A stretch of 64,000 nt of DNA, taken from a virus. Taxonomy: Duplodnaviria > Heunggongvirae > Uroviricota > Caudoviricetes. Below are positions 16,517-33,121 of this stretch, piece after piece. The stretch covers positions 39,060-103,059 of IMG/VR virus record IMGVR_UViG_3300028888_000058. One strand, given 5' to 3'. The translations under genes were made by a program, and so were the position numbers. Each line of letters opens with the position of its first letter. Positions within the stretch are counted from its first letter, which is position 1. The notes under the pieces are model-generated. The model searched no databases. It was given only the letters and a program-made list of their open reading frames with translations, and was not told where the DNA came from.

Positions 16517-16530
16517 CATAAATTAAAAAT

Positions 16531-16983
16531 ATGAAGAATATTAATAAGTACATAACAGAAAAATACAATACAGATAGTATTGAAGAATATTTGGAATCAA
16601 TTGTAAATTCTGCTAAAGGCAAGCCAGATATTTATGATGACACTGAATCTTGGGAAGCACGAGATGAATTTGATTATTGGCAAGATACATCTGGGCAATG
16701 GGATGATATTTTAGAATTTATAGATAAATATGCCTCTAATAAATGTGTAGCTGGATGGAAGAGTAAAGATTCATTTGAAAGCGTTGAAAAACTAGTTCCT
16801 AATATAGTCCGTAATATTATAAAGAAAAAACCAACAGAAATCCCATATAAGAAAAATTCAAATAAAATGGAAATGTGGGAAACTAAACAAGATGATTTTG
16901 ATATTAAAGTGTTAAAGTTCGGAAACTATGTTAATGATAATGGTACCGATTATAAAGAATATTGGTATATGATTGCTATTTAA
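16531..16983 (+). CDS. CTS-tagged hypothetical protein (MKNINKYITE)
   Basis: The N-terminal decapeptide fits the shared motif. Confidence 0.5.
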   Translation: MKNINKYITEKYNTDSIEEYLESIVNSAKGKPDIYDDTESWEARDEFDYWQDTSGQWDDILEFIDKYASNKCVAGWKSKDSFESVEKLVPNIVRNIIKKKPTEIPYKKNSNKMEMWETKQDDFDIKVLKFGNYVNDNGTDYKEYWYMIAI

Positions 16984-17009
16984 AAATAATAAAGATAACT
17001 ATGAAATCT

Positions 17010-17510
17010 CTTAAAGAACATATTATTGAAGAAGGAATTAAAGATAAAATCAAATCTTTTATCAATAAATTCAAAAAGGAAAAAATTCCAGAGAAGGTTT
17101 ATTCTTCTGATGATTTAGAAAAATATAAAGGTCAAATAATAACACCAAAAGATGCTGATGATATTATTGATATATTAATACATACTGATGATTATTTTAA
17201 AGAGTTTTTAATAAGCAAATATGAACCTAAACGTGAGCATATAAAACAAGAAGCATGTAAAAATGCCATATTAGATTATGCTTATGAAAATAATCAAGAT
17301 AGAATTAAGTATGATAAATATGGAGAAAGACATGCAAATCAAGCTGAATATGAATGTTGTAAACAACATGGTATAGATTCTTCATCAATTGCTGCTGGTG
17401 ATTTAATTCTTGCAATGATAAGACCTTATATTATGGGTTGGAGCTTTGCTGATAAAATGAAATTTAAAGCAGAAGAAAAATATAAGCCAACATATAAGAA
17501 AAATCAATGA
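17010..17510 (+). CDS. CTS-tagged hypothetical protein (MKSLKEHIIE). The track start at 16962 is upstream; the motif ATG lies at 17010.
   Basis: Shared motif. The upstream aagataactATG leader is identical to that at 2663-2674. Confidence 0.5.
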   Translation, partial: LKEHIIEEGIKDKIKSFINKFKKEKIPEKVYSSDDLEKYKGQIITPKDADDIIDILIHTDDYFKEFLISKYEPKREHIKQEACKNAILDYAYENNQDRIKYDKYGERHANQAEYECCKQHGIDSSSIAAGDLILAMIRPYIMGWSFADKMKFKAEEKYKPTYKKNQ

Positions 17511-18166
17511 AATCAATAAAAAACTATATTAATGAATCATTATCAAATGAAATACTTGATTTAAGAAAAAAATTAAGTAAATTAGATAAGTCTAAAATTT
17601 TTAATGGATTATATAATTTAGATGATTCTTTAGATAAAGAATTTTATAATATATTAATTTCATTAAATAAGTCAAATGCATCTAATAGTACTTTAATTAG
17701 TACATGGAAAATGTTGTTTTCAAAATTAATTATAGAACCATTAGTTGGAGAATTAATTGGAGATAATAAATGTGAATATTCTTCAATAAATATTGATAGA
17801 ACAGAGAAATGGGATATTAAATATAATAAGAATATATTAATAGATGTAAAAGCAACTTACAATAATCATACAGGTAATTTTAGTTTTTCTAAAAAAGATG
17901 CAGACTATATAATAAATTACAATAAGCAAGATATCAATAAAAGATATGTATTATTTGTATATCCTGAAATTAAGACTTGGGAAGATACAATAAAAATATA
18001 TAAAAATAAATCTATGGTTGATATGAAATTAATCAGTTATATAGATTTTAAAGAAATATTAAATAATAATGATTTTGAAGAAAAGAAATCAAATATATTA
18101 ATACCTAATTCTTTTATTGAAAAAAATGATAAATTTAGAAAATTTAATAAAAACATAAAGAAATGA
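17507..18166 (+). CDS. CTS-tagged hypothetical protein (MKSIKNYINE)
   Basis: Shared motif. ATGA-coupled. Confidence 0.5.
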   Translation: MKSIKNYINESLSNEILDLRKKLSKLDKSKIFNGLYNLDDSLDKEFYNILISLNKSNASNSTLISTWKMLFSKLIIEPLVGELIGDNKCEYSSINIDRTEKWDIKYNKNILIDVKATYNNHTGNFSFSKKDADYIINYNKQDINKRYVLFVYPEIKTWEDTIKIYKNKSMVDMKLISYIDFKEILNNNDFEEKKSNILIPNSFIEKNDKFRKFNKNIKK

Positions 18167-18351
18167 AATCTTTAAGACAGTATTTGACTGAAGAACTACA
18201 TGATGTAATAGTTAAAGTTGGAGATTATTGGAGAATAAAAGGTCATGCAGGAAAAGGAACAAATACTCCTAAACGTGGATATTGGAAAGCTAAATATAAA
18301 ACAAAGAAAAAAGCAGAAAACGCATTAAAAGCGTATTTTGCAAACAATTAA
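18163..18351 (+). CDS. CTS-tagged small basic protein (MKSLRQYLTE)
   Basis: Shared motif. ATGA-coupled. Confidence 0.5.
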   Translation: MKSLRQYLTEELHDVIVKVGDYWRIKGHAGKGTNTPKRGYWKAKYKTKKKAENALKAYFANN

Positions 18352-18373
18352 ATATATAAATCATTTATAAATT

Positions 18374-19033
18374 ATGAAAGATATTAAATTATTTATTTTA
18401 GAATCATTAAATAATAAACTATTAACTGCTGTTAAAAATCTTAATTATGATTTTTCAGAAACTGCATCTTTATCAAATAATACTAAAGAGAATAGAGCTA
18501 AAAAAACAAAAGCTCAAGCAAAAATATTTATAGATTTATTTAATGAATTAACAGATAAAGATACTCATTTTGATTATAAAGCAATTAGCTGTGAAGATTA
18601 TTGTAAATTAATTAATAAAACATATTCATTTATTGAAGATAGTAAAATAGGAGATATTATTATAATGAATGATAAAACTCCTGAAATGTTTATTGATTTA
18701 AAAGTAGCAGAAACTAATAAATATATTGGAACACCTGATATGTTGTCATTAGTTAATTTTGCTTCTGAACGCGACGATAAAAAATATTATTTATGTTCAT
18801 CATTAGATGGTACACAGACAAAATTAATATTAGCTAATGAAATATACAATATAATAATTTCTAAAAAAGGAAATGTTGTTGTTTCAAAAGATAGAAATTA
18901 TATTTCTAAAGAAGTTGAAGCATTTAAAGATAAAGTAAAATTAGTTGCTCCTAAAAACATGGAAAACGCAGATTTATCAAAACTATATGATGAAGATTTT
19001 GTTGCAACATCTGTAATAACAAATATAAAATAA
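18374..19033 (+). CDS. CTS-tagged hypothetical protein (MKDIKLFILE), bracketed by direct repeats
   Basis: Shared motif. About 45-bp direct repeats at 18300-18345 and 19036-19085. Confidence 0.5.
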   Translation: MKDIKLFILESLNNKLLTAVKNLNYDFSETASLSNNTKENRAKKTKAQAKIFIDLFNELTDKDTHFDYKAISCEDYCKLINKTYSFIEDSKIGDIIIMNDKTPEMFIDLKVAETNKYIGTPDMLSLVNFASERDDKKYYLCSSLDGTQTKLILANEIYNIIISKKGNVVVSKDRNYISKEVEAFKDKVKLVAPKNMENADLSKLYDEDFVATSVITNIK

Positions 19034-19035
19034 TA

Positions 19036-19085
19036 TGAAACAAAAGAAAAGCAGAAAACGCATTAAAAGCGTATTTTGCAAATAA
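19036..19085. repeat. Direct repeat duplicating the 3' end of gene 18163..18351 (aaaagcagaaaacgcattaaaagcgtattttgcaaa)
   Basis: Near-identical to 18300-18345. Confidence 0.6.
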
Positions 19086-19101
19086 ATAATATAATTTAAA
19101 T

Positions 19102-19548
19102 ATGAAGGCATTTAAAGATTATATTTTAGAAAATAAAGTTACAGAATTTAATTATGCTTCTGAAGGAGATCATGATTTTATTGATTAGGTAATTGAATTA
19201 TTGGAATCTAATGGATTTAATAAAAGTGAAAAAAAGATATTAAAATCAAAAGAATATAAGATAACAAATAATGGTTATGAATTATTTGCACGTTCTGAAC
19301 AGAATAAAACTATTAAGAATACTAAATTAGTATGTATTCGTAAAGGAGATAATAATAAATATGACTATTATTATAGATCTTCAAATGATTCATTTTGGAG
19401 ATATAATTTTTCTAAAAATCAACAAATAGTTCGATTTAGAGATTATCAGCATGCTAATACTGGTATTTATGATGTAAAAGATTCTAAATGGCACGATAGA
19501 ATATTGCAATCAATAAGAGGAATATTTAATATTAAAAAGGATAAATAA
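19102..19548 (+). pseudogene. CTS-tagged gene (MKAFKDYILE) interrupted by an in-frame TAG at about 19186-19188. The downstream body (track ORF 19201..19548) is in the same frame.
   Basis: Translating from the ATG at 19102 gives 28 codons, then TAG, then a 120-codon open frame in phase. Confidence 0.45.
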
Positions 19549-20192
19549 TGAAATCAATAACTAATTATATATTTGAAAAGATAAAGGATCTTCCTGATTC
19601 TATTAAAGGATTAATTGTATTTGATATTGATGATACAATATTAAAAGTTGATCCTAATATGATGTCTATTTATAAAAAGGAACCAGGAAAATCTGAAATC
19701 AAATTAACTACTGATGAATTTGCAAAAGATCCTGATGCAGAAGACCAAAGCAAGAGAGATTGGTTTGATTATAGAGATTTTAAAGATCCTGTAAAAGTAT
19801 ATAATTCTATCATATCTGGTACTCCATTGATTAAGAATCTTAAAATAATGGATGATTATGTTAATGCTGGATATGATTTTTGTTTTTTAACTGCACGTTC
19901 ATGTGAAGATACAGTTAAGAAAGCATTATCAGACTTCTTATTAGTTCGTGATGAAAATGGACTTTTAAAAGAATTAGGAGATTCATTTAAAAAGATTATG
20001 TCACATGCAGTTAATGATGAATATAAGAAATACCCTGGTAAGACAGATGCTGAAAAGAAAGCAAACATATTAATTAAGCTTTGTAAAAAATATGATAAAG
20101 TGGTATTTGTAGATGATGATAGAAAAAACGTAAATGCTGCTCGTGAATTGAATATAAAAAATTTAAAAGTAATTAAGGCTTGGGATGAATAA
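19548..20192 (+). CDS. HAD-superfamily phosphatase (Pnk phosphatase-like) with a CTS tag (MKSITNYIFE)
   Basis: Motif I FDIDDTIL (DxDxT), motif II LTARS, motif IV FVDDD. Confidence 0.6.
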   Translation: MKSITNYIFEKIKDLPDSIKGLIVFDIDDTILKVDPNMMSIYKKEPGKSEIKLTTDEFAKDPDAEDQSKRDWFDYRDFKDPVKVYNSIISGTPLIKNLKIMDDYVNAGYDFCFLTARSCEDTVKKALSDFLLVRDENGLLKELGDSFKKIMSHAVNDEYKKYPGKTDAEKKANILIKLCKKYDKVVFVDDDRKNVNAARELNIKNLKVIKAWDE

Positions 20193-20266
20193 AATGAATA
20201 ATAATAAATAATATGAAATCATTAAAAGAATATATTAAAATAAACAATAAAAATATTTTATAAATT

Positions 20267-20758
20267 ATGTTTAATAAAATTAGAGAAAAAATTGGTAAGT
20301 TTATATTACCAAACACTGTAAGAGTAGTTGATGCTACAGATATGACTGTTGATGAATTGATGAATAATCATGTTCAAAAATTAGAACAATTACCTGAAGT
20401 ATTCACTAAAGATTTTCTTGAAGACTTGATTAAAGAATATCCTAAGTTTGATCACCCAAATATTGTAGAATCTGATGGTAAAATAAAATTTACTGATGCT
20501 AATGGAAAGACAGCACAGCTTAAAGTTCCTCTTTTGACTATTGTTCCAATACCTTATATCTCTAAAGATGAAGTAGATTTGGATCAATACATTAAAGATA
20601 ATTTTGGAGATGTTAAATACCCTAAGAGTATGGAAGACATAAAGGGAGTTAAAGTAGAAGTTCCTGCATTGAATATTGTGCCAATACCTGATATAAGTAA
20701 AGATATAGATATTTCTTTTGATAAAGAAGCTAAGAAATCTAAAGAAAATAAAAAATAA
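20267..20758 (+). CDS. Hypothetical protein preceded by an orphan CTS start module (20213-20263, MKSLKEYIKINNKNIL, then in-frame TAA)
   Basis: The motif-bearing 16-codon mini-ORF is in the same frame as the body, separated by TAA ATT. Confidence 0.45.
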   Translation: MFNKIREKIGKFILPNTVRVVDATDMTVDELMNNHVQKLEQLPEVFTKDFLEDLIKEYPKFDHPNIVESDGKIKFTDANGKTAQLKVPLLTIVPIPYISKDEVDLDQYIKDNFGDVKYPKSMEDIKGVKVEVPALNIVPIPDISKDIDISFDKEAKKSKENKK

Positions 20759-20795
20759 TCAAATAATATAATTTCAAATAATATAATTTAAGTTA

Positions 20796-20836
20796 ACCAA
20801 TTAATAAGTATTGGTTAACTTTTTTATTTTTATATA
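20796..20836 (+). terminator. Rho-independent terminator
   Basis: 10-bp stem gttaaccaat/attggttaac followed by ttttttatttt. Confidence 0.5.
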
Positions 20837-20867
20837 TAATAAAATGATAAAAAGATTTTTATAAATA

Positions 20868-22115
20868 ATGAAACATCTACGAGATTATATATTTGAAACA
20901 TCAATTAATGGATTAAAATATTTAATTATGGATTTTGAATCTTCTGAAGATGAAACATTAATGAGTGGCTCACAATTTTATGATGTGTCTAAAAAATTAC
21001 AAAAAACTATTTCAAAAGAAGATTTAAAAAAAATATTTCAATATGCAAAAGATCATAAAAATTTAAAAGAAATTAAAGCTAGACCAGAACCTTTAGTGGC
21101 TAATTATGGTAATAAACATTTAGATTTTGCATTTAGGCGTTGGGTAAAAGATGCTATATTAGATTTAAATATTATAATTCATGGATCAAAAAATATATAT
21201 CATAATACTAATTTAAAAGGTAATGGTGAATGGGTTCCTACAGCTCAAGATATGGAAGATGTTATATCAATAGGATATAATAATGTTAATAAAATTAATA
21301 AAATATCTGAATCAAAAGATGATAAAATTGAACAAATTATAAAATATTACCAAGATAATAAAGATATAATCGATATTATTGTTAAAAAAATAAAATCAGG
21401 AAATTCACCATTAGGAAAACTTCCAACTAAAGGTATTATTGCTTCAGAAAAATGGAAAACTTTAGGAAAGTTTGAAAATATTAAAAATATAAATAATACT
21501 CCTAAAACAGATATCATATCTGCAGATCATAAATTAAAAATTTCATTAAAAGAAGAAGGTGGATCACAACTTATGTCAGGAGGATATCACGAAGCTTTAG
21601 CAACAATATTATGTGCAATTGAAAAATCAAAGTGTTTAGAAGAAGCAAAAGAATTAATTGCATCATTAGATATTAAATGGTTAACAGGATTTAAAGATAT
21701 CGATGGAATTGCAAAAATAAAAAGAAATCCAAATCATAAAGATTATGAATTAATAAAAAATGCTGAAACAAATGGCAATAAAGTTCAAGAATTACTAAAT
21801 AATCTTATAAAGAATAATTCTAAATTTGAATATGAATTATTATATGAAGCAATGACAGGATTAATTAAATTTGGAGAAAGTAATCCTGCATCTGCTAATT
21901 ATATATTGGTTTGGAATGATAAAACACCAGAATCATCTAAATTTTATACTCCAGAAGAATATATTAAACATTTAAAAGAATCAAAAATTCAATATTTAAT
22001 AAATTTTAAATCTGCAAATAATAATTCTTGGCAAAATATGCGTATAATTTGTGGTAACGCAAAATCAACAGATTCAGAAAAAACAGAAATTAAACCAATA
22101 AATAAAAATGAATGA
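20868..22115 (+). CDS. CTS-tagged hypothetical protein (MKHLRDYIFE), 415 aa
   Basis: Shared motif. Overlaps the next gene by 8 nt. Confidence 0.5.
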   Translation: MKHLRDYIFETSINGLKYLIMDFESSEDETLMSGSQFYDVSKKLQKTISKEDLKKIFQYAKDHKNLKEIKARPEPLVANYGNKHLDFAFRRWVKDAILDLNIIIHGSKNIYHNTNLKGNGEWVPTAQDMEDVISIGYNNVNKINKISESKDDKIEQIIKYYQDNKDIIDIIVKKIKSGNSPLGKLPTKGIIASEKWKTLGKFENIKNINNTPKTDIISADHKLKISLKEEGGSQLMSGGYHEALATILCAIEKSKCLEEAKELIASLDIKWLTGFKDIDGIAKIKRNPNHKDYELIKNAETNGNKVQELLNNLIKNNSKFEYELLYEAMTGLIKFGESNPASANYILVWNDKTPESSKFYTPEEYIKHLKESKIQYLINFKSANNNSWQNMRIICGNAKSTDSEKTEIKPINKNE

Positions 22116-23133
22116 AAATTTAAAAGAGGTACGTATATGTCTTGGCAGGTTTCAGCCATTCACATTAGGTCATCTTAAAATGGCTACTTATAAAGATCTT
22201 AAAGGTCCAGATAAAGAACAACAAGATAAGTTAAGAGAACAACCTAATTTAGAAGATATATCTAAACAGAAGACAATCATATTAGCAATATCTACACCAG
22301 ATGATAAAGTAGATACAAGACACCCTTTTAATGATGACTTAATGAAAAAAGAATTTGAATTAGTTAAGAAAAATTATAAGGATGATATCGAAGATGTATT
22401 ATATGTTTCTTCAGCAGATATATGTGCATGGGGTGAATTAATTAAGAAATCTGGATATAAAGCTTCAGTATGGTTGACTGGTTCTGATGAATTTAGTTTC
22501 TATAAAGGAATGGCTATTAAAGTTCCAGAATATGAAGAACATAATAAAAATAATAAAGATTGCAAAGATGCATATACAAAATCGTTTTATGTTGAAGAAA
22601 TTGAAAGAACTGAAGATAAAGATTTTGTATCATCAATATCTGGTACAAAAGTTCGTCAGTCATTATTAGATGGTGATAAAGAACTATTTACAAAAATGAT
22701 GCCAAAAGGAGTCGATAGATATTTTGATGAATTTAAAGAAAAAGTTGAAAATGCTCCAGAACCTAAGAAGAAAGAATCTAAAAAATCATTAAAAAACAAA
22801 ATTAAAGAAGATATGAAATCAATTAAAGACTTTATTTTAGAATCAAAACAAAATGAAAATCAAAAAGAATTAAATAATGCTATAGACATTATAAAAACTT
22901 GTTTAGATAAAAAAGGATATAAAGAAGATGAATTTAAGATAACTAAAGTATTTGGAAACGAAATAAGAGTTTATTTTATAAAAGGTTCAAATACTCATCA
23001 TGAAGCAGTTTCTAAAATTGGTAAATATATTGATAATGAATTATATAAAGCTCATAGTAAAGTATCTCATAAGACTATGGGTAAAGGTAAAGAAGGAGAA
23101 TATTATCAAGCATTTACAATTAATATATTTTAA
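22108..23133 (+). CDS. NMN/NaMN-adenylyltransferase-like (cytidylyltransferase fold) protein fused in-frame to a CTS-tagged module that begins at the internal ATG at 22813 (MKSIKDFILESKQN...)
   Basis: GRFQPFTLGHL (HxGH-type motif) and ISGTKVRQSL (SGTxxR motif). The internal 30 nt atgaaatcaattaaagactttattttagaa are identical to the start of the next gene at 23140. Confidence 0.5.
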   Translation: MNENLKEVRICLGRFQPFTLGHLKMATYKDLKGPDKEQQDKLREQPNLEDISKQKTIILAISTPDDKVDTRHPFNDDLMKKEFELVKKNYKDDIEDVLYVSSADICAWGELIKKSGYKASVWLTGSDEFSFYKGMAIKVPEYEEHNKNNKDCKDAYTKSFYVEEIERTEDKDFVSSISGTKVRQSLLDGDKELFTKMMPKGVDRYFDEFKEKVENAPEPKKKESKKSLKNKIKEDMKSIKDFILESKQNENQKELNNAIDIIKTCLDKKGYKEDEFKITKVFGNEIRVYFIKGSNTHHEAVSKIGKYIDNELYKAHSKVSHKTMGKGKEGEYYQAFTINIF

Positions 23134-23139
23134 ATTATT

Positions 23140-23445
23140 ATGAAATCAATTAAAGACTTTATTTTAGAAAGCAAAGCACCAAATAAAATATCTGCATCAG
23201 GTAAGAAAAAATTAACAAAATATATTGATGATCTAATTAAAAATATAGATGATATATATGATTATGCAGGTATTCCTACTGATGATGCTGACCAAGTAGA
23301 TTCTGATTGTAGAGATACAATATGGAATTGGGTTAATGATGAAGGAATATGTAACTGGGATACTGAAGATAAAGAATCAGTTGGATTTATAAATGATGAA
23401 TATAATAGATTATCTAAAGCTATATGTGATAAATATAAATTATAA
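23140..23445 (+). CDS. CTS-tagged hypothetical protein (MKSIKDFILE)
   Basis: Shared motif. Confidence 0.5.
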   Translation: MKSIKDFILESKAPNKISASGKKKLTKYIDDLIKNIDDIYDYAGIPTDDADQVDSDCRDTIWNWVNDEGICNWDTEDKESVGFINDEYNRLSKAICDKYKL

Positions 23446-23447
23446 TT

Positions 23448-24332
23448 ATGAAATCATTTAAAAACTATATATTAGAATCATTAGTTATAGAAGGTGGTAA
23501 TGCAGTTAAAGCAGAACCAATTCCTGCAGTAATAGCGCCTAAGGTTTATGATGAGATTGAAAAGAAAGTTCATTCAATATCAAAGTTTAAAGATATTGAT
23601 ATGGCAGCTTTAGGTAGTATTGGCAAAAAGGCAGATGACCAGACTAATGGAGATATTGATGTTGCAGTTAAAGTCGATACTAAGGATGAACTTAATGAAA
23701 TAGTTGATACTTGCTTTGGCGACTGTGAAATCAATTATAATACAATGAAGACTATTACATCATTTGGATATCCTTATGATATAGATGGTTATAAAGGTAT
23801 TGCACAAGTTGATTTTATGATAGTTAAAAAGATGGACTGGGCTAAAGCATATTATCATTCTCCTAACTTAAAGACTGGTGAATCAAAATACAAAGGTGCT
23901 GTACGAACTGCTGCATTAAGTTGTGTCATATCTTGTTTGCCAGTTCCTGATGTAAAAGATGAATATTTTGAAGATGGTGTTACAGTTAAGAAACATTGGA
24001 AACATACATTCAATACAGAAGGTGTATTCATTCAATTGATTGATTACTGTGGAAAGAATGGTAAGCCTGTTAAGAATGGTAAGAAGATTAAAGAATTTGA
24101 AAAATTAGTCACTAATGATCCAACTAATTTAGTAAGATTCATATTTGGAGATAATGGTACTATAGAAGATATTAATTCAATTGAATCTTTATGGAAAGCT
24201 ATACATGATCCTAAGAAATTCAACTGGGGTGATGAAGTATTAGCCGCTATTGAAAAGAAAATAATTGAAGACCCTGGATTAGAAGGAAAACTTAATAAAG
24301 AAGATTTTCCATGTAAATTTTATAAAGGTTAA
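23448..24332 (+). CDS. Pol-beta-superfamily nucleotidyltransferase with a CTS tag (MKSFKNYILE)
   Basis: LGSIGKKADDQTNGDIDVAV fits the minimal NTase signature [GS]-x(9-13)-DxD. Confidence 0.55.
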   Translation: MKSFKNYILESLVIEGGNAVKAEPIPAVIAPKVYDEIEKKVHSISKFKDIDMAALGSIGKKADDQTNGDIDVAVKVDTKDELNEIVDTCFGDCEINYNTMKTITSFGYPYDIDGYKGIAQVDFMIVKKMDWAKAYYHSPNLKTGESKYKGAVRTAALSCVISCLPVPDVKDEYFEDGVTVKKHWKHTFNTEGVFIQLIDYCGKNGKPVKNGKKIKEFEKLVTNDPTNLVRFIFGDNGTIEDINSIESLWKAIHDPKKFNWGDEVLAAIEKKIIEDPGLEGKLNKEDFPCKFYKG

Positions 24333-24335
24333 ATT

Positions 24336-24947
24336 ATGAAACAAATAAATAATTTTATAAATGAGAAACTTATTATAAATAAGAATATTAAAGTTGATAA
24401 GTATCATTATCATCCTATAGATAATAAAGAATTAAAAGATCTTATTGAAAAATTAATTAAAGAACGTGGAAATGAAGCAAATTTGAATGATATTGATACA
24501 TCACAGATAACAGACATGTCAAATTTATTTGAAGATTCAGATTTTAATGGAGATATATCAAAATGGGATATAAGTAATGTCAAAGATATGTCAGGTATAT
24601 TTCTTAATTCTGATTTTAACGGTGATATATCTGAATGGGATGTAAGTAATGTTAAAAATATGTTATTTATGTTTAATAGTTCTAAATTTGATGGAGATTT
24701 AAGTAAATGGGATGTAAGTAATGTTACAAATATGGCATCAATGTTTGCTGAATCTAAATTTACTGGTAAAAATGGAGATATATCTAATTGGGATGTAAGT
24801 AATGTTGAATTTATGTCATATATGTTTAATGATTCTAAGTTCAGTGGAAACATTTCTAAATGGAATATAAGTCGCGATACAAATATATATAAAATGTTTA
24901 AAGGTTCTCCATTAGAAAAGAATCCACCTAAATGGTACAAGAAATAA
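24336..24947 (+). CDS. DUF285-type (Mycoplasma/Listeria-type) 26-residue-repeat protein with a CTS tag (MKQINNFINE)
   Basis: Five tandem repeats of the form GDISxWDVSNVxNMxxMFxxSxF. Confidence 0.55.
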   Translation: MKQINNFINEKLIINKNIKVDKYHYHPIDNKELKDLIEKLIKERGNEANLNDIDTSQITDMSNLFEDSDFNGDISKWDISNVKDMSGIFLNSDFNGDISEWDVSNVKNMLFMFNSSKFDGDLSKWDVSNVTNMASMFAESKFTGKNGDISNWDVSNVEFMSYMFNDSKFSGNISKWNISRDTNIYKMFKGSPLEKNPPKWYKK

Positions 24948-24980
24948 TAAAAAATATTATAAAGATAATTTGATAATTAA

Positions 24981-26447
24981 ATGGAACATTTAATAGATAG
25001 ATATTTAAAGAAGCCTGAAGTAGTTAAAGATTTATTTACAAAAGAAGTAAGTATATCTTTAAAAGTTGATGGCGCTGCATTTCAGATATCTTATGATAAA
25101 GAAAATGATAATATAACATATCATAAGCGTGGTGGTTCTTCAAAATCATTAGGTCCTATTATTGATGAATATACTCAATTAATGAGAAAGAACATTAATG
25201 ATGCTATTGATTATTTTGAATCTAAAAAGGAAGCTGTTAAGAAGTATAAATTTTATGCTATTGAAATGTTCAACGATTCTTATATTCTTTTGACTGTTAT
25301 AGATAATGATAATAATATAATAGATGATAGAAATAAGTTAGAAGAAATATCAAAATCATTAGGCATAGATTGTGTTCCTATATTATTTGAAGGTAAATTA
25401 AATAAAGAACAGATTGAATCATTAATGTCAATGATGACATTAGAATCAGAAACTTCTAATGATGTATATAAAGAATATCTTACTAATATATTTGGTAAAG
25501 GTGACTATCAGAAATTTTTAGTCGGAGATGAAGTTGAAGGTATTGTATTGACATGGAATATAGATAATGCAATATCGCAGTATAAGATAATTAATCCTGC
25601 ATTTAAGACTCGTCATGATAAAGAAATCAAACAAGGAAATGAAGATTATAAGAAAGAAATAGAAGAATACATTAACTTATATGAATTGATATATGAAACT
25701 ATTAATAAAATTGGCAAACATGAGAATGATAATTGGATTAAGAATTTAGATGCTAATTTTATTAATATGATTAATAATGAAGAATTCAAATCTAAATATG
25801 AAGATATAATAGATACATTACAACCTAAGTTTAAAGATTTCTTTACATTACAGATTAATAAAGCATCTAAAGAAATACAAGATATCATCAAAGAGTATGG
25901 TGACAATATGAAGTTCTTATATGAAAAATATTTACAAGTATTTTTCAAACAAAAGAAACGTAACTATTTTATATCTAAAGAATTCCAATTAAATGTCAAT
26001 AAAGTAATCGAAAGACTTCAAAAAATAAATGAATCTAAACTTTCTCAATATATGAGAAGAAACATTAAATCATTTGGTGAATATTTTATTGATGAAAAAT
26101 TAAAAATTAATAAAGATACAAAAATTAATACAGTAGTATATTCAACAAATACTGGTAAGAAAATAGAAGTCATTAAAAAAGTTGCTGAAGATACTGAATC
26201 ATGGAAAAAATTTGAAAGTTTTGTACTTCAATTACGTCGTTTTAATTTAATGAAATATAGTAGAATACTTGTTTGTAATATTGAAGATGACAAATGGGTA
26301 ACAAATACAAAACAAAGTTATTCAATAAATGATTATCAACCAAATTATAGATATCTTTATTCGAGTCAGAAAAATTATTATACATATAAACAAGTAATTG
26401 AAATGCTTGAAAGCGGCAAACACATAATTATATTAGCAGGTAAATAA
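24981..26447 (+). CDS. ATP-dependent polynucleotide (probably RNA) ligase-like nucleotidyltransferase
   Basis: Motif I SLKVDGAAF (KxDG) and motif IV-like VEGIVLTW. Context includes the Pnk kinase and phosphatase. Confidence 0.45.
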   Translation: MEHLIDRYLKKPEVVKDLFTKEVSISLKVDGAAFQISYDKENDNITYHKRGGSSKSLGPIIDEYTQLMRKNINDAIDYFESKKEAVKKYKFYAIEMFNDSYILLTVIDNDNNIIDDRNKLEEISKSLGIDCVPILFEGKLNKEQIESLMSMMTLESETSNDVYKEYLTNIFGKGDYQKFLVGDEVEGIVLTWNIDNAISQYKIINPAFKTRHDKEIKQGNEDYKKEIEEYINLYELIYETINKIGKHENDNWIKNLDANFINMINNEEFKSKYEDIIDTLQPKFKDFFTLQINKASKEIQDIIKEYGDNMKFLYEKYLQVFFKQKKRNYFISKEFQLNVNKVIERLQKINESKLSQYMRRNIKSFGEYFIDEKLKINKDTKINTVVYSTNTGKKIEVIKKVAEDTESWKKFESFVLQLRRFNLMKYSRILVCNIEDDKWVTNTKQSYSINDYQPNYRYLYSSQKNYYTYKQVIEMLESGKHIIILAGK

Positions 26448-26450
26448 ATT

Positions 26451-26786
26451 ATGAAATCAATTAATGAATATATTTATGAATCTCAAAATACATATTTTTC
26501 CGAACAAGAAATTGGAAAGATTATGAAAGATATGTGGAATAAGAATGGCATCTTTTATAAGTTCATTAAAGATAAAGTAGATTCATTAAAAGCGGCTGAC
26601 ATAAATGATTATTTAGATCAATGTTTAGATGATAATAGATGTACAGCAGAATTTGCAGCATATATAGAAATGGTTATTGGACGTCATAATTTTAGTTTAG
26701 AACAAGTTCAGAAATTTATAAATACAAATGATTTAAAGGATGAAGAACCTAAAAGACATTATATCAGAGAAACTTATAATCAATAA
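26451..26786 (+). CDS. CTS-tagged hypothetical protein (MKSINEYIYE)
   Basis: Shared motif. Confidence 0.5.
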   Translation: MKSINEYIYESQNTYFSEQEIGKIMKDMWNKNGIFYKFIKDKVDSLKAADINDYLDQCLDDNRCTAEFAAYIEMVIGRHNFSLEQVQKFINTNDLKDEEPKRHYIRETYNQ

Positions 26787-27162
26787 GAATACTAAAGTTG
26801 AATCTTATAAGGATATTGATTATGATAATCCTGAAGATATATGTAATATTTATAAAGCTGCAGTTATATCTATAATGAAAAATTCTTCTTATATAGAAGG
26901 CCCAACATTTAAAAAGACATTAGTTAGAATTCAATATAACGACATTATAGATATTCTTAATGATGTTTTTGAATATAAGAATATTGATTATGATGAAGGC
27001 AAAATTAAAAAAGGTAATGTTTGGAGAATAATAAGTAATGATAAAAAGGCAATTCAAAATATTATAAATGGATATACTATAACACTTAAATATGATAGAA
27101 ATATTAAATTATCATATAAAGAATTATTTGAAAAATACAAAGATATTATCAATAAGAAATGA
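26740..27162 (+). CDS. CTS-tagged hypothetical protein (MKNLKDIISE); overlaps the previous gene by 47 nt
   Basis: Shared motif. Confidence 0.45.
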   Translation: MKNLKDIISEKLIINKNTKVESYKDIDYDNPEDICNIYKAAVISIMKNSSYIEGPTFKKTLVRIQYNDIIDILNDVFEYKNIDYDEGKIKKGNVWRIISNDKKAIQNIINGYTITLKYDRNIKLSYKELFEKYKDIINKK

Positions 27163-27683
27163 AATCAATTTTAACATACATAAAAGAATCATTAAATATA
27201 TTTGAAAAACAAAATCCTTTTAATGTTTGGATAATGGTTGGTCTTCCAGGTTCAGGTAAGTCTACATATATTAAAGAAGAACTTCCAAAAAATATTGAAA
27301 TTATTAATCAAGATTCAATAAGAGTTGAACTTGGAATTATGAAAGATGATGATCATAAAGCTATAGGTGATAAAGAACAAGAAAAGGAAGTGACTAGAAT
27401 TAATGATGAACGTATTAATGAACTTATAAGACAACGCAAAGATTTTGTTATTGATAATACAAATGTTAAAGCAGGACGTGTTGAAAACTATTATAGTAAG
27501 TTAAATAAAGCTGGTGCTAATGTTAAGATAGTCATTATAGATACTCCTAAAGATGTTTGCAAGAAACGTAGAAATGATTGCATACCTGAGAAAGTAATTG
27601 ATGATATGGAATTAGGAATCAATAAAGTTAAGAAAATATTTAAAGACAATAAAGATACTATCATTATAACAGATAGATACTAA
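27159..27683 (+). CDS. Polynucleotide 5'-kinase (T4 Pnk kinase-domain-like) with a CTS tag (MKSILTYIKE)
   Basis: Walker A IMVGLPGSGKST. VIDNTNVKAGRVENYY aligns with T4 Pnk IISDTNLNPERR. C-terminal region resembles Pnk. Confidence 0.6.
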   Translation: MKSILTYIKESLNIFEKQNPFNVWIMVGLPGSGKSTYIKEELPKNIEIINQDSIRVELGIMKDDDHKAIGDKEQEKEVTRINDERINELIRQRKDFVIDNTNVKAGRVENYYSKLNKAGANVKIVIIDTPKDVCKKRRNDCIPEKVIDDMELGINKVKKIFKDNKDTIIITDRY

Positions 27684-27715
27684 ATATTTATTTTAAAAAA
27701 CATATATAAGTAATA

Positions 27716-28081
27716 ATGAAAGATTTAAATAACTATATAGTTGAACGCGGAGCTGCGCCAGGATTAGGTGATAGAAAACCTTTGCATAGAAATCCTGCAG
27801 TAAATATGATACAATCAATTTTAGATGAATTATCTAAACATAATGATTGTAAATATGATAAAGAAAAAGATGCATGGTCTGGTAAAGACGCAGATCTTTG
27901 GAAAGGTGCAGGACAGTTCTTATTTGATTATGTACAAGAATTAAATCAAAAGGATTTTGAAGAAATTGTTGATCATTTTGGTTGGAAGCAATTTATACCT
28001 GATGTAAATGACATACATCCTTCAGAAATATCAATGTGTGTAGCATTAATATTGAATTCAAATAAACAAAAAGAAAGTTAA
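27716..28081 (+). CDS. CTS-tagged hypothetical protein (MKDLNNYIVE)
   Basis: Shared motif. Confidence 0.5.
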   Translation: MKDLNNYIVERGAAPGLGDRKPLHRNPAVNMIQSILDELSKHNDCKYDKEKDAWSGKDADLWKGAGQFLFDYVQELNQKDFEEIVDHFGWKQFIPDVNDIHPSEISMCVALILNSNKQKES

Positions 28082-28101
28082 ATTTTAAATAATATTTAAA
28101 T

Positions 28102-28216
28102 TTTTAGCTCAGAATATTGAATTATAAATATTATTCAAAATTTTAGCTCAGAATATTGAATTATAAATATTATTCAAAATTTTAGCTCAGAATATTGAAT
28201 TATTCTGAGCTTTTAC
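28102..28216. repeat. Tandem 39-bp repeat (2.5 copies of ttttagctcagaatattgaattataaatattattcaaaa); the last copy is converted into an 11-bp-stem hairpin plus T-run
   Basis: Read directly. Each full copy contains TATAAATA (about 28123-28130 and 28162-28169). Hairpin agctcagaata-ttgaat-tattctgagct, then ttttac. Confidence 0.65.
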
Positions 28217-28259
28217 TATATTATATACAAATAATAATTAATTTAAATATTCAAATAAA

Positions 28260-28517
28260 ATGAAGCAGACAAACAATTTCAATTTCGAGAAGTTCAAGAA
28301 TGGTGGTAATGCAACAACCAAGTTGGGTAATCCTGTTAAGTTCATTACAATGTGTTCTGACGGTCGCATGCTGGTACAGGTAACTCCACGAAACCGTATT
28401 GGTGAGCAGGGAACTCTCAAGTATGTCGCACCTGCAATGCCTTACACAGATAAGTACCATGTAACTGGTAAGAAGTATAACAATACTGATTCTGAGTTTG
28501 ATATTGTAATGGGATAA
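28260..28517 (+). CDS. Hypothetical small protein with GC-richer codon usage, like the virion genes
   Basis: ORF with markedly more G/C in third codon positions than its neighbours. Confidence 0.5.
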   Translation: MKQTNNFNFEKFKNGGNATTKLGNPVKFITMCSDGRMLVQVTPRNRIGEQGTLKYVAPAMPYTDKYHVTGKKYNNTDSEFDIVMG

Positions 28518-28544
28518 TATAATCAAATATATATAAAGGAGTAC

Positions 28545-28572
28545 TAAAATATTTTAGTACTCTTTTTTGAAT
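28545..28572 (+). terminator. Rho-independent terminator
   Basis: gagtactaaaatattttagtactc followed by ttttttg. Confidence 0.55.
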
Positions 28573-28615
28573 ATTATTTATTTTATTCTATATTATAATA
28601 TCAAACAAATAAAAT

Positions 28616-29053
28616 ATGGAATATACAAAGGAAGATTTATCAAATCAGGAGTTAATCAATGAAGTTACTGAGGCTACTTTCGGTAAAGCTAAAGGATGTC
28701 CAAAGGGAATGAGTCGCGGAGAATGGCTTACTAAAGAATTAGGTCTTGATAAGGTTAAATCAATTCGTCGTAAGAGCTCCGGTTGTGTTTCATTTTTTGA
28801 CGAGGAAGATAACCGTCGTAAAGCTTTACAGGTTGCATATAAAGCAGCAAAAAACAAGAAGTGGAATTTGGTAGATGAAGAGTTTACTATTAATGAAGAT
28901 TTCAATTTCACTCATACTTCTTGGAAAGGTGTTTTTATAAAAGGTGGTACAACAGTTATTGCAACAATGGAAATTATCAATAAGTACATTGAGGAATGTA
29001 ATAAGCCTTATGGAGAACGTGATTTATCATTTATACATTTAGTAAAAGATTAA
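28616..29053 (+). CDS. Hypothetical protein, also GC-richer
   Basis: ORF. Composition. Confidence 0.45.
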   Translation: MEYTKEDLSNQELINEVTEATFGKAKGCPKGMSRGEWLTKELGLDKVKSIRRKSSGCVSFFDEEDNRRKALQVAYKAAKNKKWNLVDEEFTINEDFNFTHTSWKGVFIKGGTTVIATMEIINKYIEECNKPYGERDLSFIHLVKD

Positions 29054-29234
29054 TGTTAATTTTGTAAATATAACATACTTACAATAGAATATGAAACAGC
29101 CATACGAAAAATTAGAACAGTTGAGAGAAATCCTTGGCGATGAAACTGTATTTACTGAGTTTTTGAATTATTTCACAAATGATCAAATTGATAAGTTTTG
29201 TGATTCTGTAGCAAACGAATATGATATTTAAGAT

Positions 29235-29468
29235 ATGAATATAGTAGAGATTAAGACTGGTAAATATTATGATTCTGATTATTCAGAATATCATTTTAAG
29301 ACAAATCATCTACGAAGAGATATTTATGATGACAATTATAAATTAACTCATAATTTTTTAGATTGGCTTCGTAGAAATCATTCAACAATATATAATGAAT
29401 ATATTTGTGACCCAGATAATTTTGAAATCATTTATCTTCATTTTGATGATATTGAACTAATCCCATAA
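29235..29468 (+). CDS. Hypothetical protein
   Basis: ORF only. Confidence 0.35.
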   Translation: MNIVEIKTGKYYDSDYSEYHFKTNHLRRDIYDDNYKLTHNFLDWLRRNHSTIYNEYICDPDNFEIIYLHFDDIELIP

Positions 29469-29473
29469 ATAAG

Positions 29474-29977
29474 ATGGCAGAAAATTTTAGAAATAAACAA
29501 TGGTTTAAGAACTTAACACAAGATCGTAAAGATGAAATTTGTGCTAAGTTTGATATTGATGAAAAGACATTAAAGAAAGCTGGACGTGAAACTGAAGATG
29601 GGCGTATTGTAGTTGACCTGCTTCGTATTGATCGTATATTACACACTCCAGAACTTTGGGATGTATGTTATAATGCATTAATAAAAAATGATGTATTTAA
29701 TAATTCTTTAAATTGGGATATTAACGAAGTAGATGATATGATACTTCGAATGTCTTCTATATATAATTTTATTAATCCTGATGTAAAATTTCTTAAGTAT
29801 AAATCTTCTTTAAAAAATGATCTTTTTACTAAGGATACGTATAAACGATTACTTAAATGGGTTAATTATGCCAAAGAAGATTTAACAGATGTTGAAAATG
29901 TTAAATTTAGTTCATATCAAATTTATTCACAAGTTAAATGCTTATTGGATTCAGATTTGAAACTAATTAAGCAATAA
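29474..29977 (+). CDS. Hypothetical protein
   Basis: ORF only. Confidence 0.4.
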   Translation: MAENFRNKQWFKNLTQDRKDEICAKFDIDEKTLKKAGRETEDGRIVVDLLRIDRILHTPELWDVCYNALIKNDVFNNSLNWDINEVDDMILRMSSIYNFINPDVKFLKYKSSLKNDLFTKDTYKRLLKWVNYAKEDLTDVENVKFSSYQIYSQVKCLLDSDLKLIKQ

Positions 29978-30036
29978 TTGAATAATTAACCTTAATAATC
30001 TATTTATATATTAAATCTAATATAAAAATAATTATA

Positions 30037-30585
30037 ATGAATTGGTATTTAATTTTATTTGTGGCAACTTTTGCCATATTTATTGTTAAGCTTTTGATTT
30101 CAGTATTTGCTGGAGATTTTGATTTGGATGTAGATTTTGACGGAGATTCAGATTGTGATACATCAAGTGCGTTTTCATTTAAGGGAGTATTGCATTTCTT
30201 AATGGGATTTAGTGCTTATCTTTGCGGAAGAGTTTATTTATATCCTATTAATTTAACTACAGATAATGGTTATGTAACATTTAGTTTTTGGGATTATTTT
30301 ATTGCTGGTTTATGCGGAGCAGTTTTAATGATTCTTTTATTCTTATGTTATAAAACTGCAATGAAAGCTAATTGTACTCCAACATTACCTCAAGATAATA
30401 TTAATGGATGTGTAGGTAATATTTATTTAAATCTTGGTAATGGACAATATTCTGTTGAAGCTCATACTGTAGCAGGAACTACGAATGTGGATGCATTTTA
30501 CACTTCAGATGATTTGGAAATTGGAACTGAAGTAAAGTTAAATAAAGAAGGCGATAAGATTTTAATTTCTTGTATAGATAAATGA
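30037..30585 (+). CDS. NfeD-like membrane protein (YuaF/YqiJ-type), putative flotillin partner
   Basis: N-terminal TM helices plus a C-terminal beta-rich segment GNIYLNLGNGQYSVEAHTVAGTTNVDAFYTSDDLEIGTEVKLNKEGDKILISCI resembling the NfeD OB-fold domain. Sits immediately upstream of the flotillin gene. Confidence 0.45.
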   Translation: MNWYLILFVATFAIFIVKLLISVFAGDFDLDVDFDGDSDCDTSSAFSFKGVLHFLMGFSAYLCGRVYLYPINLTTDNGYVTFSFWDYFIAGLCGAVLMILLFLCYKTAMKANCTPTLPQDNINGCVGNIYLNLGNGQYSVEAHTVAGTTNVDAFYTSDDLEIGTEVKLNKEGDKILISCIDK

Positions 30586-30737
30586 AAGTAAAAGATATTT
30601 TTGGTATTAAAGGATTAGGAACAGTTGTAACTGTACCATTAATTTTATGGGTAGGATCATTAACTTGTAAAATGGTATATGATTATAAAGTATTAAAATA
30701 TTTAAAAAATATTAATAAAAAAATATAAATAAATTAT

Positions 30738-30929
30738 ATGAAGCTAAGGGAATTATTTGATTATATTTGGAATGAATTAGAAATTCCTGTAACTAAATTG
30801 GAAATTCAAAATGGAGTTAATAATTTGTGTGATAATATAAGATATGAAATTAATAAATTAGAACAGGAAGAGGAACAGAAAAAACAAATTAATTATAAAA
30901 GATATCCGAATTCATATTCTATATATTAA
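30738..30929 (+). CDS. Hypothetical small protein
   Basis: ORF only. Confidence 0.3.
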   Translation: MKLRELFDYIWNELEIPVTKLEIQNGVNNLCDNIRYEINKLEQEEEQKKQINYKRYPNSYSIY

Positions 30930-30991
30930 TAATTGAATTAAGAGAGTATTAATATATAATTTTAAACGTTTAATTTTAATTTTTTTAAAAA

Positions 30992-33016
30992 ATGAGTGAA
31001 CAATTATTTACATTGATTTTGATTGGTGGAGCTGTATTGCTCGGTATTATTACCATTTGGGCGATTCTTTCTAGATATCGTCGTTCTGCACCAGATGAAC
31101 TTTTGGTTGTGTTCGGTAAATCTGGAAAGATGAAGGTTGAAGGTGAAGATGGTAAGGAGAAGACTATTGTAGTTCCATCTAAGATTATTCAGGGTGGTGG
31201 TGCATTTGTATGGCCTATCATTCAAGATTACAAAAAGATGTCAATGGCACCTATTCAGATTAAGGTAACTGTTGACGGTATTGATTCTCAGGCTATTCCT
31301 ATGCACTTGCCTGTTGTATTGACTACAGCTATTAGTAGGGATAAGGAAATTCAACAGAACGCTGCAACAAGATTCTTAAGTGCTAAATCTGAGGAAATTC
31401 ACAAGCAGGTATCTGAAATCCTTGTTGGTGAGACACGTGCTATTATGGCAACAATGCTTATTGAGGAAATTAACGCAGAACGTGATAAGTTCTTGAATAA
31501 GGTTCGTGGATCACTTGAGCAGGAGTTGGCTAAGGTTGGTTATGATGTTACTAACATTAACATTTCAGAAATTACTGATGATGCTAATTACATTAAGAAC
31601 TTAGGTCAGAAGGCTGCTACTAAGGCACAGGCTAACGCTGAGGCAGATATTGCTGAACAGAGGAAGCAAGGTAATGTTAAGATCGCAAACACTAAGAAGG
31701 AAGAGGAAATTCAGGTTGCTGCAGCTACTAAGGAGCAGGAGGTAACTGTTAATGAAACAAAACAGGAGCAGGAAGTTCGAGTTGCAGAGATTCAAAGAGA
31801 TAAGGAAATTAAACTTGCTGAGGCTGCTAAGGAACGTGAGTCTGGTATTGCAACTCAAGAAGCTGAAAAGGCTGCTAATATTGCTGAGGCACAGGCTGAT
31901 GCAGAATCAAAGAAAGCAACTGCTAAGGCTCGTCAGATTTCAGCTGTAGCTAAGGCACAGGCTGAAGCAGAATCAAATAAGGCAGGTTCTGAGGCAGAAC
32001 AGATGAAGAATATCGCTAAGTATGAGGCAGATGCTGAAGCTACCAAGAATGAACAGGAAGCACAGAAGTTGATTCGTGTTGCTAAGGCTAATCAGGAGAA
32101 GGAAGCAGAAACTATTAAGGCAATACAGGAAAAGGAATCTAAGGCTGCAGAATATGAATCTGAGAAACGTAAGCGTAAGGCAGAAGCTGATAAGAAAGCT
32201 GGTGTCGCAGAACAGATTGCAAAGATTGAAGTTGCTGAGGCTACTGCTAAGGCAGGTAAGGCGGAAGCTGATGCTAAGAAGGTGAAGGAAACTGCTATGG
32301 TTGATGCAGAGATGTCGGTTGCTAAAACCAAGCAAGAGAGACAGTTGGAAGTTAACAAGGCACAGGCTGCTGCTGCAGAGGAGCAATTAAATGCTACTGA
32401 AATCGTACCTGCTCAGAAAGCTAAGGAGAAGGCAGTTATTGAGGCTGAGGCAATTAAACGTAAGGCAGAACTTGAGGCTGAAGCTGTTAAAGCTCAATTA
32501 TTGAGAAAGGCTGAGGCTGAGGCTGAAGCAACTCGTATTAAGTTAAATGCTGAGGCAGAAGGTATTAAGAATAAGTTAATGGCTGAGGCTGAAGGTAAGA
32601 GAGCAAGTTTGATGGCTGAGGCGGAAGCATTACAGCAGAAGGAATTGGCACCTGCTATGGCATTTGAGAAAATGGTAGAGGTTGCAGGTGGTCGCCCAGA
32701 TTTGGCTGTACAATGGAAGACTGTTGATCATCTTGAAGGTATCGCTGGTGCTCAGGCCGAAGCTTTATCAAAAATATCTTTGGGCCACGTTATGGTATAT
32801 GGTGATTCTTCTACTGGTGGTAAGTTTATTAAGGATCTTATGGCTAACGTAACTCCTGCTATTGATATGATCTCAACTGGTATGAAGACTCCTATCAAGA
32901 ATCTTTTGGGAATGACCGATGATAAGAAGGAGCTTAATGCACCAGAAGAGCAACAGATTAATGAAGATAAGAAAAAGAGAAATAAGAAAACTGATAACTT
33001 CGAGGAAGTTAAGTAA
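30992..33016 (+). CDS. Flotillin-like SPFH (band-7) protein
   Basis: N-terminal TM, an SPFH-like domain and about 350 aa of Ala/Glu-rich coiled coil (EAEAE, AKAQAEAE repeats), as in FloT/YuaG. GC-richer codon usage. Confidence 0.65.
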   Translation: MSEQLFTLILIGGAVLLGIITIWAILSRYRRSAPDELLVVFGKSGKMKVEGEDGKEKTIVVPSKIIQGGGAFVWPIIQDYKKMSMAPIQIKVTVDGIDSQAIPMHLPVVLTTAISRDKEIQQNAATRFLSAKSEEIHKQVSEILVGETRAIMATMLIEEINAERDKFLNKVRGSLEQELAKVGYDVTNINISEITDDANYIKNLGQKAATKAQANAEADIAEQRKQGNVKIANTKKEEEIQVAAATKEQEVTVNETKQEQEVRVAEIQRDKEIKLAEAAKERESGIATQEAEKAANIAEAQADAESKKATAKARQISAVAKAQAEAESNKAGSEAEQMKNIAKYEADAEATKNEQEAQKLIRVAKANQEKEAETIKAIQEKESKAAEYESEKRKRKAEADKKAGVAEQIAKIEVAEATAKAGKAEADAKKVKETAMVDAEMSVAKTKQERQLEVNKAQAAAAEEQLNATEIVPAQKAKEKAVIEAEAIKRKAELEAEAVKAQLLRKAEAEAEATRIKLNAEAEGIKNKLMAEAEGKRASLMAEAEALQQKELAPAMAFEKMVEVAGGRPDLAVQWKTVDHLEGIAGAQAEALSKISLGHVMVYGDSSTGGKFIKDLMANVTPAIDMISTGMKTPIKNLLGMTDDKKELNAPEEQQINEDKKKRNKKTDNFEEVK

Positions 33017-33036
33017 ATAGTTAAAGCGTTAACTAT

Positions 33037-33072
33037 ATAAAGAAAGGATACTATTTAATAGTATCCTTTTTT
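33037..33072 (+). terminator. Rho-independent terminator
   Basis: aggatactatttaatagtatcct followed by ttttttatt. Confidence 0.55.
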
Positions 33073-33121
33073 TATTATTTTTATATATAATGATATTAAA
33101 AATATTAAATAATATATAAAG

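Follow-up and report, generated by a model that had tools for sequence, protein, structure and literature searches.

A 64,000-nucleotide window of phage DNA, positions 39,060 to 103,059 of the IMG/VR virus record IMGVR_UViG_3300028888_000058 (Caudoviricetes), encodes a polynucleotide kinase (Pnk)-type 5'-kinase, a HAD phosphatase, a predicted RNA ligase resembling T4 RNA ligase 2 (Rnl2), a Pol-beta-superfamily nucleotidyltransferase, and an NMNAT-like nucleotidyltransferase. In and around these genes recurs a short peptide tag that resembles the capsid-targeting sequence (CTS) of phage T4. The folds, catalytic residues, tag statistics, and conserved gene neighborhood described below are established by computation. 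Our preferred reading, offered tentatively and at slightly less than an even chance, is that the enzymes make up a kit for healing and sealing RNA, and that the tag would direct each of them into the prohead, where it would be trimmed off before the enzymes travel into the cell with the DNA.

Enzymes of the proposed repair set

The original prediction had named a dispersed polynucleotide-repair set made up of the phosphatase, the ligase, and the kinase. The three open reading frames (ORFs) were found where that prediction put them, with the motifs it gave (FDIDDT, KVDG, and GLPGSGKST, respectively). The three enzyme assignments held; coordinates are collected in Table 1.

The assignment of gene 27159 as a Pnk-type 5'-kinase is well supported by sequence comparison. 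The product matched the AAA_33 profile with a score of 74.1 bits (cut-off, 27; E value, 1.8e-20) and, in PHROGs, phrog_505, "polynucleotide kinase" (8e-23); NCBIfam gave sub-threshold matches only, to PSTK and Pnkp. All five matches from a PDB sequence search are polynucleotide kinases (CthPnkp of Clostridium thermocellum, T4 Pnk, and Pnkp1), and in the alignment the P-loop, the Asp-x-x-Arg block, and the lid arginines are in register with the window protein. Its key residues are G28 to T36 of the P-loop (GLPGSGKST), D52, R55, and R137/R138. INQDSIR pairs with INRDDYR of T4 and ISSDFCR of CthPnkp, so that D52 and R55 are the equivalents of T4 D35 and R38, and KKRR pairs with the T4 lid region. 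In T4 Pnk, D35 and R38 bind the 5'-OH end, and the lid contributes an arginine. A search of related metagenomic contigs gave 103 matches, and of the homologs in deposited phages almost all bear the annotation polynucleotide kinase, one of them being a T4-like PseT. The homologs were not grouped with unrelated P-loop families; the closest relatives of the kinase are polynucleotide kinases.

The phosphatase passed the PF00702 profile (27.8 bits; cut-off, 26.4) and matched phrog_415, "polynucleotide kinase" (3e-9), a family that also takes in the T4-like PseT phosphatase domain (2e-21) and so provides an indirect link. It did not pass the Pfam HAD_PNKP profile (13.6 bits; cut-off, 27.6), an hhalign comparison with the T4-like PseT gave an E value of 0.057, and a profile search of the PDB returned weak, mixed matches that included nucleotidases (AphA, SDT1-like). 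Sequence gives no firm tie to Pnkp. Structure comparison identified the phosphatase domains of Pnkp as the nearest structural neighbors, and the protein was not placed with unrelated HAD families.

Across 48 diverse homologs, residues D26, D28, and K171 are invariant, and T30, T115, D189, and D190 are kept in at least 90%. R117 is also invariant. The catalytic residues of T4 Pnkp are Asp165, Asp167, Ser211, Lys258, and Asp278 (PMC3592404), to which D26, D28, T115, K171, and D189/D190 correspond. A cap-like insertion follows motif I, which makes a mononucleotide substrate possible. The family comprises 179 representatives (E of ≤0.001) among 1.84 billion proteins; related metagenomic contigs gave 945 matches, the best 120 of which are at least 75% identical. 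No fusion of phosphatase and kinase was found among the representatives examined (N-termini of those of at least 170 residues, and a Pfam scan of 10 long forms). The long members, of 693 to 1020 residues and from other metagenomes (P0194, P0197, P0198, P0211, P0212, P0220, and others), consist of an N-terminal tag-like peptide, the HAD domain, and then about 700 residues without a Pfam domain; the Pfam scan of these proteins detected no further domains and no fusion to a kinase or ligase. Many divergent family members have their own variants of the tag-like peptide. As predicted, kinase and phosphatase are encoded by separate genes, about 7 kb apart, an arrangement already described for jumbo phages (PMC7824862).

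Neither the ligase sequence nor its family profile retrieved a relevant entry in PDB sequence searches, and fold comparison was therefore used. The structure model is confident for residues 1 to 350 and collapses thereafter; it has an RNA-ligase fold with a helical C-terminal domain. Foldseek returned full-length T4 RNA ligase 2 as the best match, followed by fungal tRNA ligase, REL1, Rnl3, and Rnl5. The protein matched the PF09414 RNA_ligase profile at 28.6 bits (cut-off, 27), and 62 homologs were found in related metagenomic contigs, the lowest identity being 33%. Within the family alignment, K28 (of KVDG), D30, G31, R50, E95, E186, G187, and K202 are invariant. Alignment to T4 Rnl2, whose reference sequence was checked against PDB entry 2HVQ, equated K28 with K35, R50 with R55, EGIVL with EGYVL, and K202 with K225 (motifs I, Ia, IV, and V). 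E95 is offset by four residues from Rnl2 E99, beside a gap, and motif III is accordingly assigned by strand position only. Motifs III to V are thus kept, bar the second lysine of motif V. The KxDG protein had been put forward as ligase-like, in a comparison with the T4 pair of Pnk and Rnl1; its motifs and fold bear out an RNA ligase, and it is Rnl2, not Rnl1, that it resembles. Distant ligase homologs (26 to 29% identity, loci L010 to L017) have no tag and no phosphatase or kinase gene nearby; these homologs do not carry the association beyond the clade of the window phage.

The Pol-beta-superfamily nucleotidyltransferase retains the signature of its superfamily: G56-S57, D69-x-D71, and D122 are invariant in an alignment of 10 sequences. 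Pfam gave only weak Polbeta and NTP_transf_2 matches (best E value, 0.015), and the protein had no Pfam RlaP match, no PDB profile match, and no curated family. Measured against RlaP, the ligase-associated nucleotidyltransferase, it has the Pol-beta signature and adjacency to a ligase, but does not match the family profile.

A shared peptide tag and a predicted prohead protease

A position matrix built from shared N-termini found 17 copies of the tag, all of them on the plus strand and within 16531 to 33122; shuffled translations yielded 0.02 on average. Fifteen of the 17 stand at ORF starts, one at the start of an ORF interrupted by a TAG codon (19102), and one within an ORF (22813). Every copy has I or L at position 8 and E at position 10; the codons vary, conservation being at the protein level, and the tag residues have low confidence in the structure models. 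At least 15 unrelated proteins carry the peptide, which comes and goes among orthologs while the enzyme body is kept. The T4 CTS is a 10-residue peptide, MKTYQEFIAE, that is removed by the prohead protease (PMC8442874; PMC10229621; PMC5694885). The tag has the same length and spacing (MK-x4-[FY]-I-x-E). It ends in [IL]-x-E, the cleavage motif of T4 gp21, and in the kinase the tag is followed by SLNIFE (to nucleotide 27206), a second possible cleavage motif.

The tags reported earlier were confirmed, both that of the phosphatase (MKSITNYIFE) and that of the kinase (MKSILTYIKE). The ligase, thought at the time to be untagged, has a degenerate tag-like junction at residues 358 to 381, where its homologs have clear tags. 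In these homologs the tag comes just after the core of the enzyme; some end there, such as the L007 ligase, which terminates in "...IKALNNYILESKYK", and others run on past it into modules homologous to the products of window genes 26451 or 27716 or of the DUF285 gene described below, modules that are separate tagged genes elsewhere. Orthologs of the NMNAT-like protein in L004, L005, L007, L008, and L009 have a C-terminal tag of the form "...KVKEG[LM]xSLKNYILES[LI]K", followed directly by the stop codon. The kinase homologs of the clade all carry the tag; distant kinases begin at the P-loop strand. The tag of the Pol-beta nucleotidyltransferase is absent in both L001 copies. Since ligase homologs and NMNAT-like orthologs carry the tag C-terminal of the enzyme, all five enzymes are tagged in the clade, which goes beyond the known behavior of the T4 signal. 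The tag is N-terminal in the phosphatase, the kinase, and the Pol-beta nucleotidyltransferase, and lies on the C-terminal side of the catalytic domain in the ligase and the NMNAT-like protein. In relatives it is also seen at C-termini and at the junctions of swapped or fused modules.

The tag array shares a co-directional gene block with the head genes, among them that of a predicted prohead maturation protease. The best PDB sequence match of the protease is T4 gp21 (5jbl), with the SRG serine block aligned; Pfam returned zero matches. We presume that this is the enzyme that would cut after the tag Glu. Its N-terminus, MTDKRCLIYE, shares the spacing of the tag, and in its C-terminal half a low-complexity linker of Lys, Asp, Glu, and Pro precedes about nine repeats that resemble the tag. 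These may be sites of self-cleavage or may form a surface for docking of cargo.

Among the other tagged proteins is a small, very basic one (gene 18163) that is 78 to 97% identical in L001, L004, L007, L008, and L009, distant loci included. Its likeness to the internal proteins of T4 supports the view that the tag marks capsid cargo. Two tagged proteins of 219 residues (17507-18166 and 18374-19033) have "IDVK" and "IDLK" strands that resemble PD-(D/E)xK nuclease motifs by eye; neither had a Pfam or PHROG match. The interrupted ORF (19102-19548), beginning with MKAFKDYILENK, contains one in-frame TAG, at 19186, and its L007 ortholog (4080-4526) is intact, with 148 residues. TAG is a rare stop; general stop-codon recoding was considered and rejected, as large genes are free of in-frame TAG or TGA.

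Gene neighborhood and the phage

The window was compared with eight loci from relatives, one of which, L009, is truncated and ends inside the ligase gene. The most constant neighbors of the ligase gene in these related contigs are the genes for the NMNAT-like protein and the Pol-beta nucleotidyltransferase. The former neighbors the ligase gene in each locus that covers that side (L001 and L004 to L008), and also in L009; the latter is directly upstream of it in L001, L004, L006, and L007 and close upstream in L005 and L008. The order phosphatase, NMNAT-like, Pol-beta nucleotidyltransferase, ligase recurs in L004 to L009, with the phosphatase gene 3 to 7 kb upstream of the ligase gene in L004 to L008 and in L009. 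The kinase gene follows the ligase gene immediately in L007 and after one intervening gene in L005, and a contig of 376,291 bp carries homologs of phosphatase, kinase, and ligase together. The set is larger than was thought, the two nucleotidyltransferase genes also being conserved neighbors. Between the Pol-beta nucleotidyltransferase and ligase genes lies a gene for a tagged DUF285 (BspA-like repeat) protein (24336-24947; 2.4e-46), which has two or three paralogs in relatives and is fused to the ligase C-terminus in some ligase homologs.

By its head protein, the nearest deposited relative is LR756500.1 (L018), which also holds the closest deposited homolog of the kinase. There the homolog is the kinase half of an HD-phosphohydrolase and kinase protein, encoded directly downstream of a PF09414 RNA ligase (6e-28); the two are a classical heal-and-seal pair. 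Positions 9062-15432 of this genome are a compact cluster of conflict genes, encoding a PARP-like protein, an R2K ATP-grasp protein, an AAA ATPase, an N-terminally extended RNA ligase, and the HD-kinase, all of them without the tag.

The window is AT-rich (G+C, 23 to 37%), and nearly all of its genes, from 173 to 58808, are on the plus strand. The major head protein (51666-53450) is 31 to 37% identical to those of an uncultured 462-kb phage, Sphingomonas phage PAU, Tenacibaculum phages pT24 and PTm1, and Lak phages, and the window also encodes a tail sheath. Metagenomic contigs with close relatives of the genes studied are 320 to 474 kb long; the window comes from a very large tailed phage. 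Searches of deposited phage genomes gave zero matches, both at the DNA level with the region and at the protein level with the ligase core, the phosphatase, or a long member of the phosphatase family. No tRNA genes were found in the window. The T4 late promoter TATAAATA was not enriched (28 observed; 30.7 expected), and at this chance level it is uninformative on timing. A single ORF of 2368 residues (37395-44501) lies within the structural gene block. Inspection by eye of 16500-33200 showed only AT-rich sequence upstream of start codons, with no visible Shine-Dalgarno-like purine runs, and frequent overlap of neighboring genes by ATGA.

Table 1. Features of the repair genes, the tag, and the prohead protease in the window
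Feature	Position (nt)	Strand	Basis or remark
Tag array, 17 copies of M-K-x-[IL]-x-x-[YF]-I-x-E-[SK]	16531..33982	+	Position matrix; repair genes inside
Basic tagged protein, 62 aa	18163..18351	+	Net +9 after tag removal
Three ORFs of the original prediction	19548-20192, 24981-26447, 27159-27683	+	ORF coordinates and motifs
HAD (DxDxT) phosphatase, 214 aa	19548..20192	+	FDIDDT, PF00702
Phosphatase tag, MKSITNYIFE, residues 1-10	19548-19577	+	N-terminal
NMNAT-like HIGH-motif nucleotidyltransferase gene (enzyme part, residues 1-235)	22108..23133	+	GRFQPFTLGH ... SGTKVR
Internal in-frame tag of NMNAT-like gene, MKSIKDFILESK	22813-22848	+	Followed by 94-aa extra module
Pol-beta-superfamily nucleotidyltransferase, 294 aa	23448..24332	+	GS, DxD, D motifs
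Pol-beta nucleotidyltransferase tag, MKSFKNYILE	23448-23477	+	N-terminal
Rnl2-like RNA ligase (predicted), 488 aa	24981..26447	+	PF09414, motifs, fold
Ligase catalytic core, residues 1-350	24981-26030	+	Conserved core of ~350 residues
Degenerate tag-like junction of ligase, residues 358-381, MRRNIKSFGEYFIDEKLKINKDTK	26052-26123	+	
Ligase appended module	26124-26444	+	
Pnk-type P-loop 5'-kinase (predicted), 174 aa	27159..27683	+	AAA_33, phrog_505, PDB matches
Kinase tag, MKSILTYIKE	27159-27188	+	N-terminal
Prohead maturation protease (predicted), 575 aa	49821..51548	+	phrog_207, "head maturation protease," 6e-40
12-aa repeats of protease, VQNW[IV]xEEF[AS]PE, ~nine	50861-51085	+	W-[IV]-x-E core, tag-like

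Proposed delivery with the DNA and alternative explanations

The enzymology of the proposed kit is well supported by homology and structure models. By homology, the phosphatase would remove 2',3'-cyclic or 3'-phosphates, and 5'-OH ends would receive their phosphate from the kinase; nucleotides that have been lost may be put back by the Pol-beta nucleotidyltransferase, and the Rnl2-like ligase would seal the break. The tag, about 10 residues long and amphipathic, would act as a capsid-loading signal of the T4 CTS type, docking the proteins in the assembling prohead; the gp21-like protease would then cut after its Glu. The processed enzymes would remain inside the head until they pass into the cell together with the DNA. 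In this way, tRNAs or other RNAs cut by host nucleases could be mended ahead of all translation of phage genes. We infer packaging, cleavage, and ejection, and likewise that the substrate is RNA; the proposal of delivery with the DNA draws on the likeness between the tag and the T4 CTS and on the gp21-like protease that the window encodes. A wider version of the proposal is possible but more doubtful: a position-independent peptide would pack a complete RNA-repair kit (phosphatase, kinase, Pol-beta nucleotidyltransferase, ligase, and NMNAT-like enzyme) and a dozen other proteins, all injected with the DNA, so that RNA cutting by the host is undone ahead of phage protein synthesis. The peptide would also serve as a joint for modules that are swapped or fused into polyproteins, which the prohead protease would later split.

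Comparison with known systems shows which parts of the proposal are familiar. The RNA-repair system of T4 (Pnkp with Rnl1 or Rnl2) likewise has a P-loop 5'-kinase, a DxDxT 3'-phosphatase, and a lysine-adenylate RNA ligase, and T4 Pnkp and Rnl2 are the best or near-best structural matches to the window enzymes. The window set differs in that kinase and phosphatase are separate genes, the ligase lacks one motif V lysine and has appended modules, and all members carry a CTS-like tag. The bacterial Pnkp/Hen1 and Pnkp1-Rnl-Hen1 systems form one polypeptide or a fixed complex, whereas the window enzymes are separate proteins, and a Hen1 methyltransferase was not found in the window. Jumbo phages encode Rnl2, PNK, a standalone HAD protein, and the ligase-associated Pol-beta nucleotidyltransferase RlaP (Burroughs and Aravind 2016; Iyer et al. 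2021, PMC7824862), which is the same component list, including the Pol-beta enzyme beside the ligase; because this combination has been described, the repair set as such is of a known kind. The window differs from those systems in the missing Pfam RlaP match and in the constant presence of the NMNAT-like gene, and the shared terminal peptide is not described in the jumbo-phage work (PMC7824862). A putative capsid-loading tag on every member is possibly the only new element.

As for the tag, the T4 CTS is carried by the internal proteins and Alt and is removed by gp21. The window peptide likewise has 10 residues and stands on several unrelated proteins, a small basic one among them. Presumed cargo genes are far more numerous in the window (at least 15 within 17 kb), and the cargo consists of nucleic acid repair enzymes, with tags also at C-termini and internal junctions. 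Encapsulin cargo peptides and the polyvalent proteins of phages offer a further parallel: by means of short terminal peptides or fusions, enzymes are brought into an HK97-fold shell or sent in with the DNA, as proposed here. Encapsulin cargo peptides are position independent, which the tag resembles, but neither they nor the polyvalent proteins have any sequence relationship to it.

Several observations weigh against loading and delivery of such a kit. The T4 repair enzymes are not known to be virion proteins, nor is T4 known to package Pnk or its RNA ligases. The T4 CTS is known only at N-termini, whereas in the ligase and NMNAT-like families the tag is found C-terminally or at internal sites, which the T4 model does not provide for. 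The Pfam score of the ligase barely exceeds the threshold, and its second motif V lysine is absent, K227 of Rnl2 being replaced by I204 and by Ile or Val throughout the family; in Rnl2 both motif V lysines are essential. The gp21 match of the protease is weak (E value, 0.0095). The kinase gene is not within 10 kb of the ligase gene in L001, L006, and L008, nor within the roughly 7 kb covered downstream of it in L004, and L001 has no phosphatase gene near the ligase gene. Finally, injected polyvalent proteins have been surveyed and were not reported together with RNA ligases (PMC5512222).

Some of these points would fit an ordinary cytoplasmic RNA-repair module, made after infection as in T4, in which the peptide serves for docking to a hub, as a degradation or timing signal, or as a recombination joint. 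The enzymes do match known phage heal-and-seal sets (PMC7824862), the peptide marks points of module swap and fusion at N-terminal, C-terminal, and internal sites, unlike the known T4 CTS, and the tag-like repeats of the protease could be another docking surface. [quoted passage not shown]

That the three genes do not form one functional set, but encode independent cargo or accessory enzymes (the HAD protein a nucleotidase, the kinase acting on another substrate, and the ligase having a separate role), seems improbable to us. Unrelated tagged genes do separate the three, kinase and phosphatase genes are not always near the ligase gene, the phosphatase has its cap-like insertion and a weak similarity to nucleotidases (AphA, SDT1-like), and it is far more conserved than the ligase, which suggests different constraints. 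Each of the three, however, independently finds RNA-repair enzymes as its best structural or sequence matches, the pairing of Pol-beta nucleotidyltransferase and ligase fits the known theme of ligase-associated nucleotidyltransferases, and the kinase gene directly follows the ligase gene in L007. Enzymes delivered with the DNA would also be well placed to act on DNA, and T4 Pnkp does act on DNA ends as well; that the set heals and seals DNA, such as nicks or damaged ends of the injected genome, is nonetheless the explanation we regard as very improbable.

RNA repair by phages is usually viewed as requiring expression of the repair genes first, a weakness if the host cuts its tRNAs early. If the proposed loading and delivery are correct, repair enzymes carried in the capsid would remove this dependency on expression and would represent a new kind of counter-defense. 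The tag, a short natural peptide that seems usable at either end of a protein, could also be employed in the way the T4 CTS is today, to bring enzymes of choice into large capsids.

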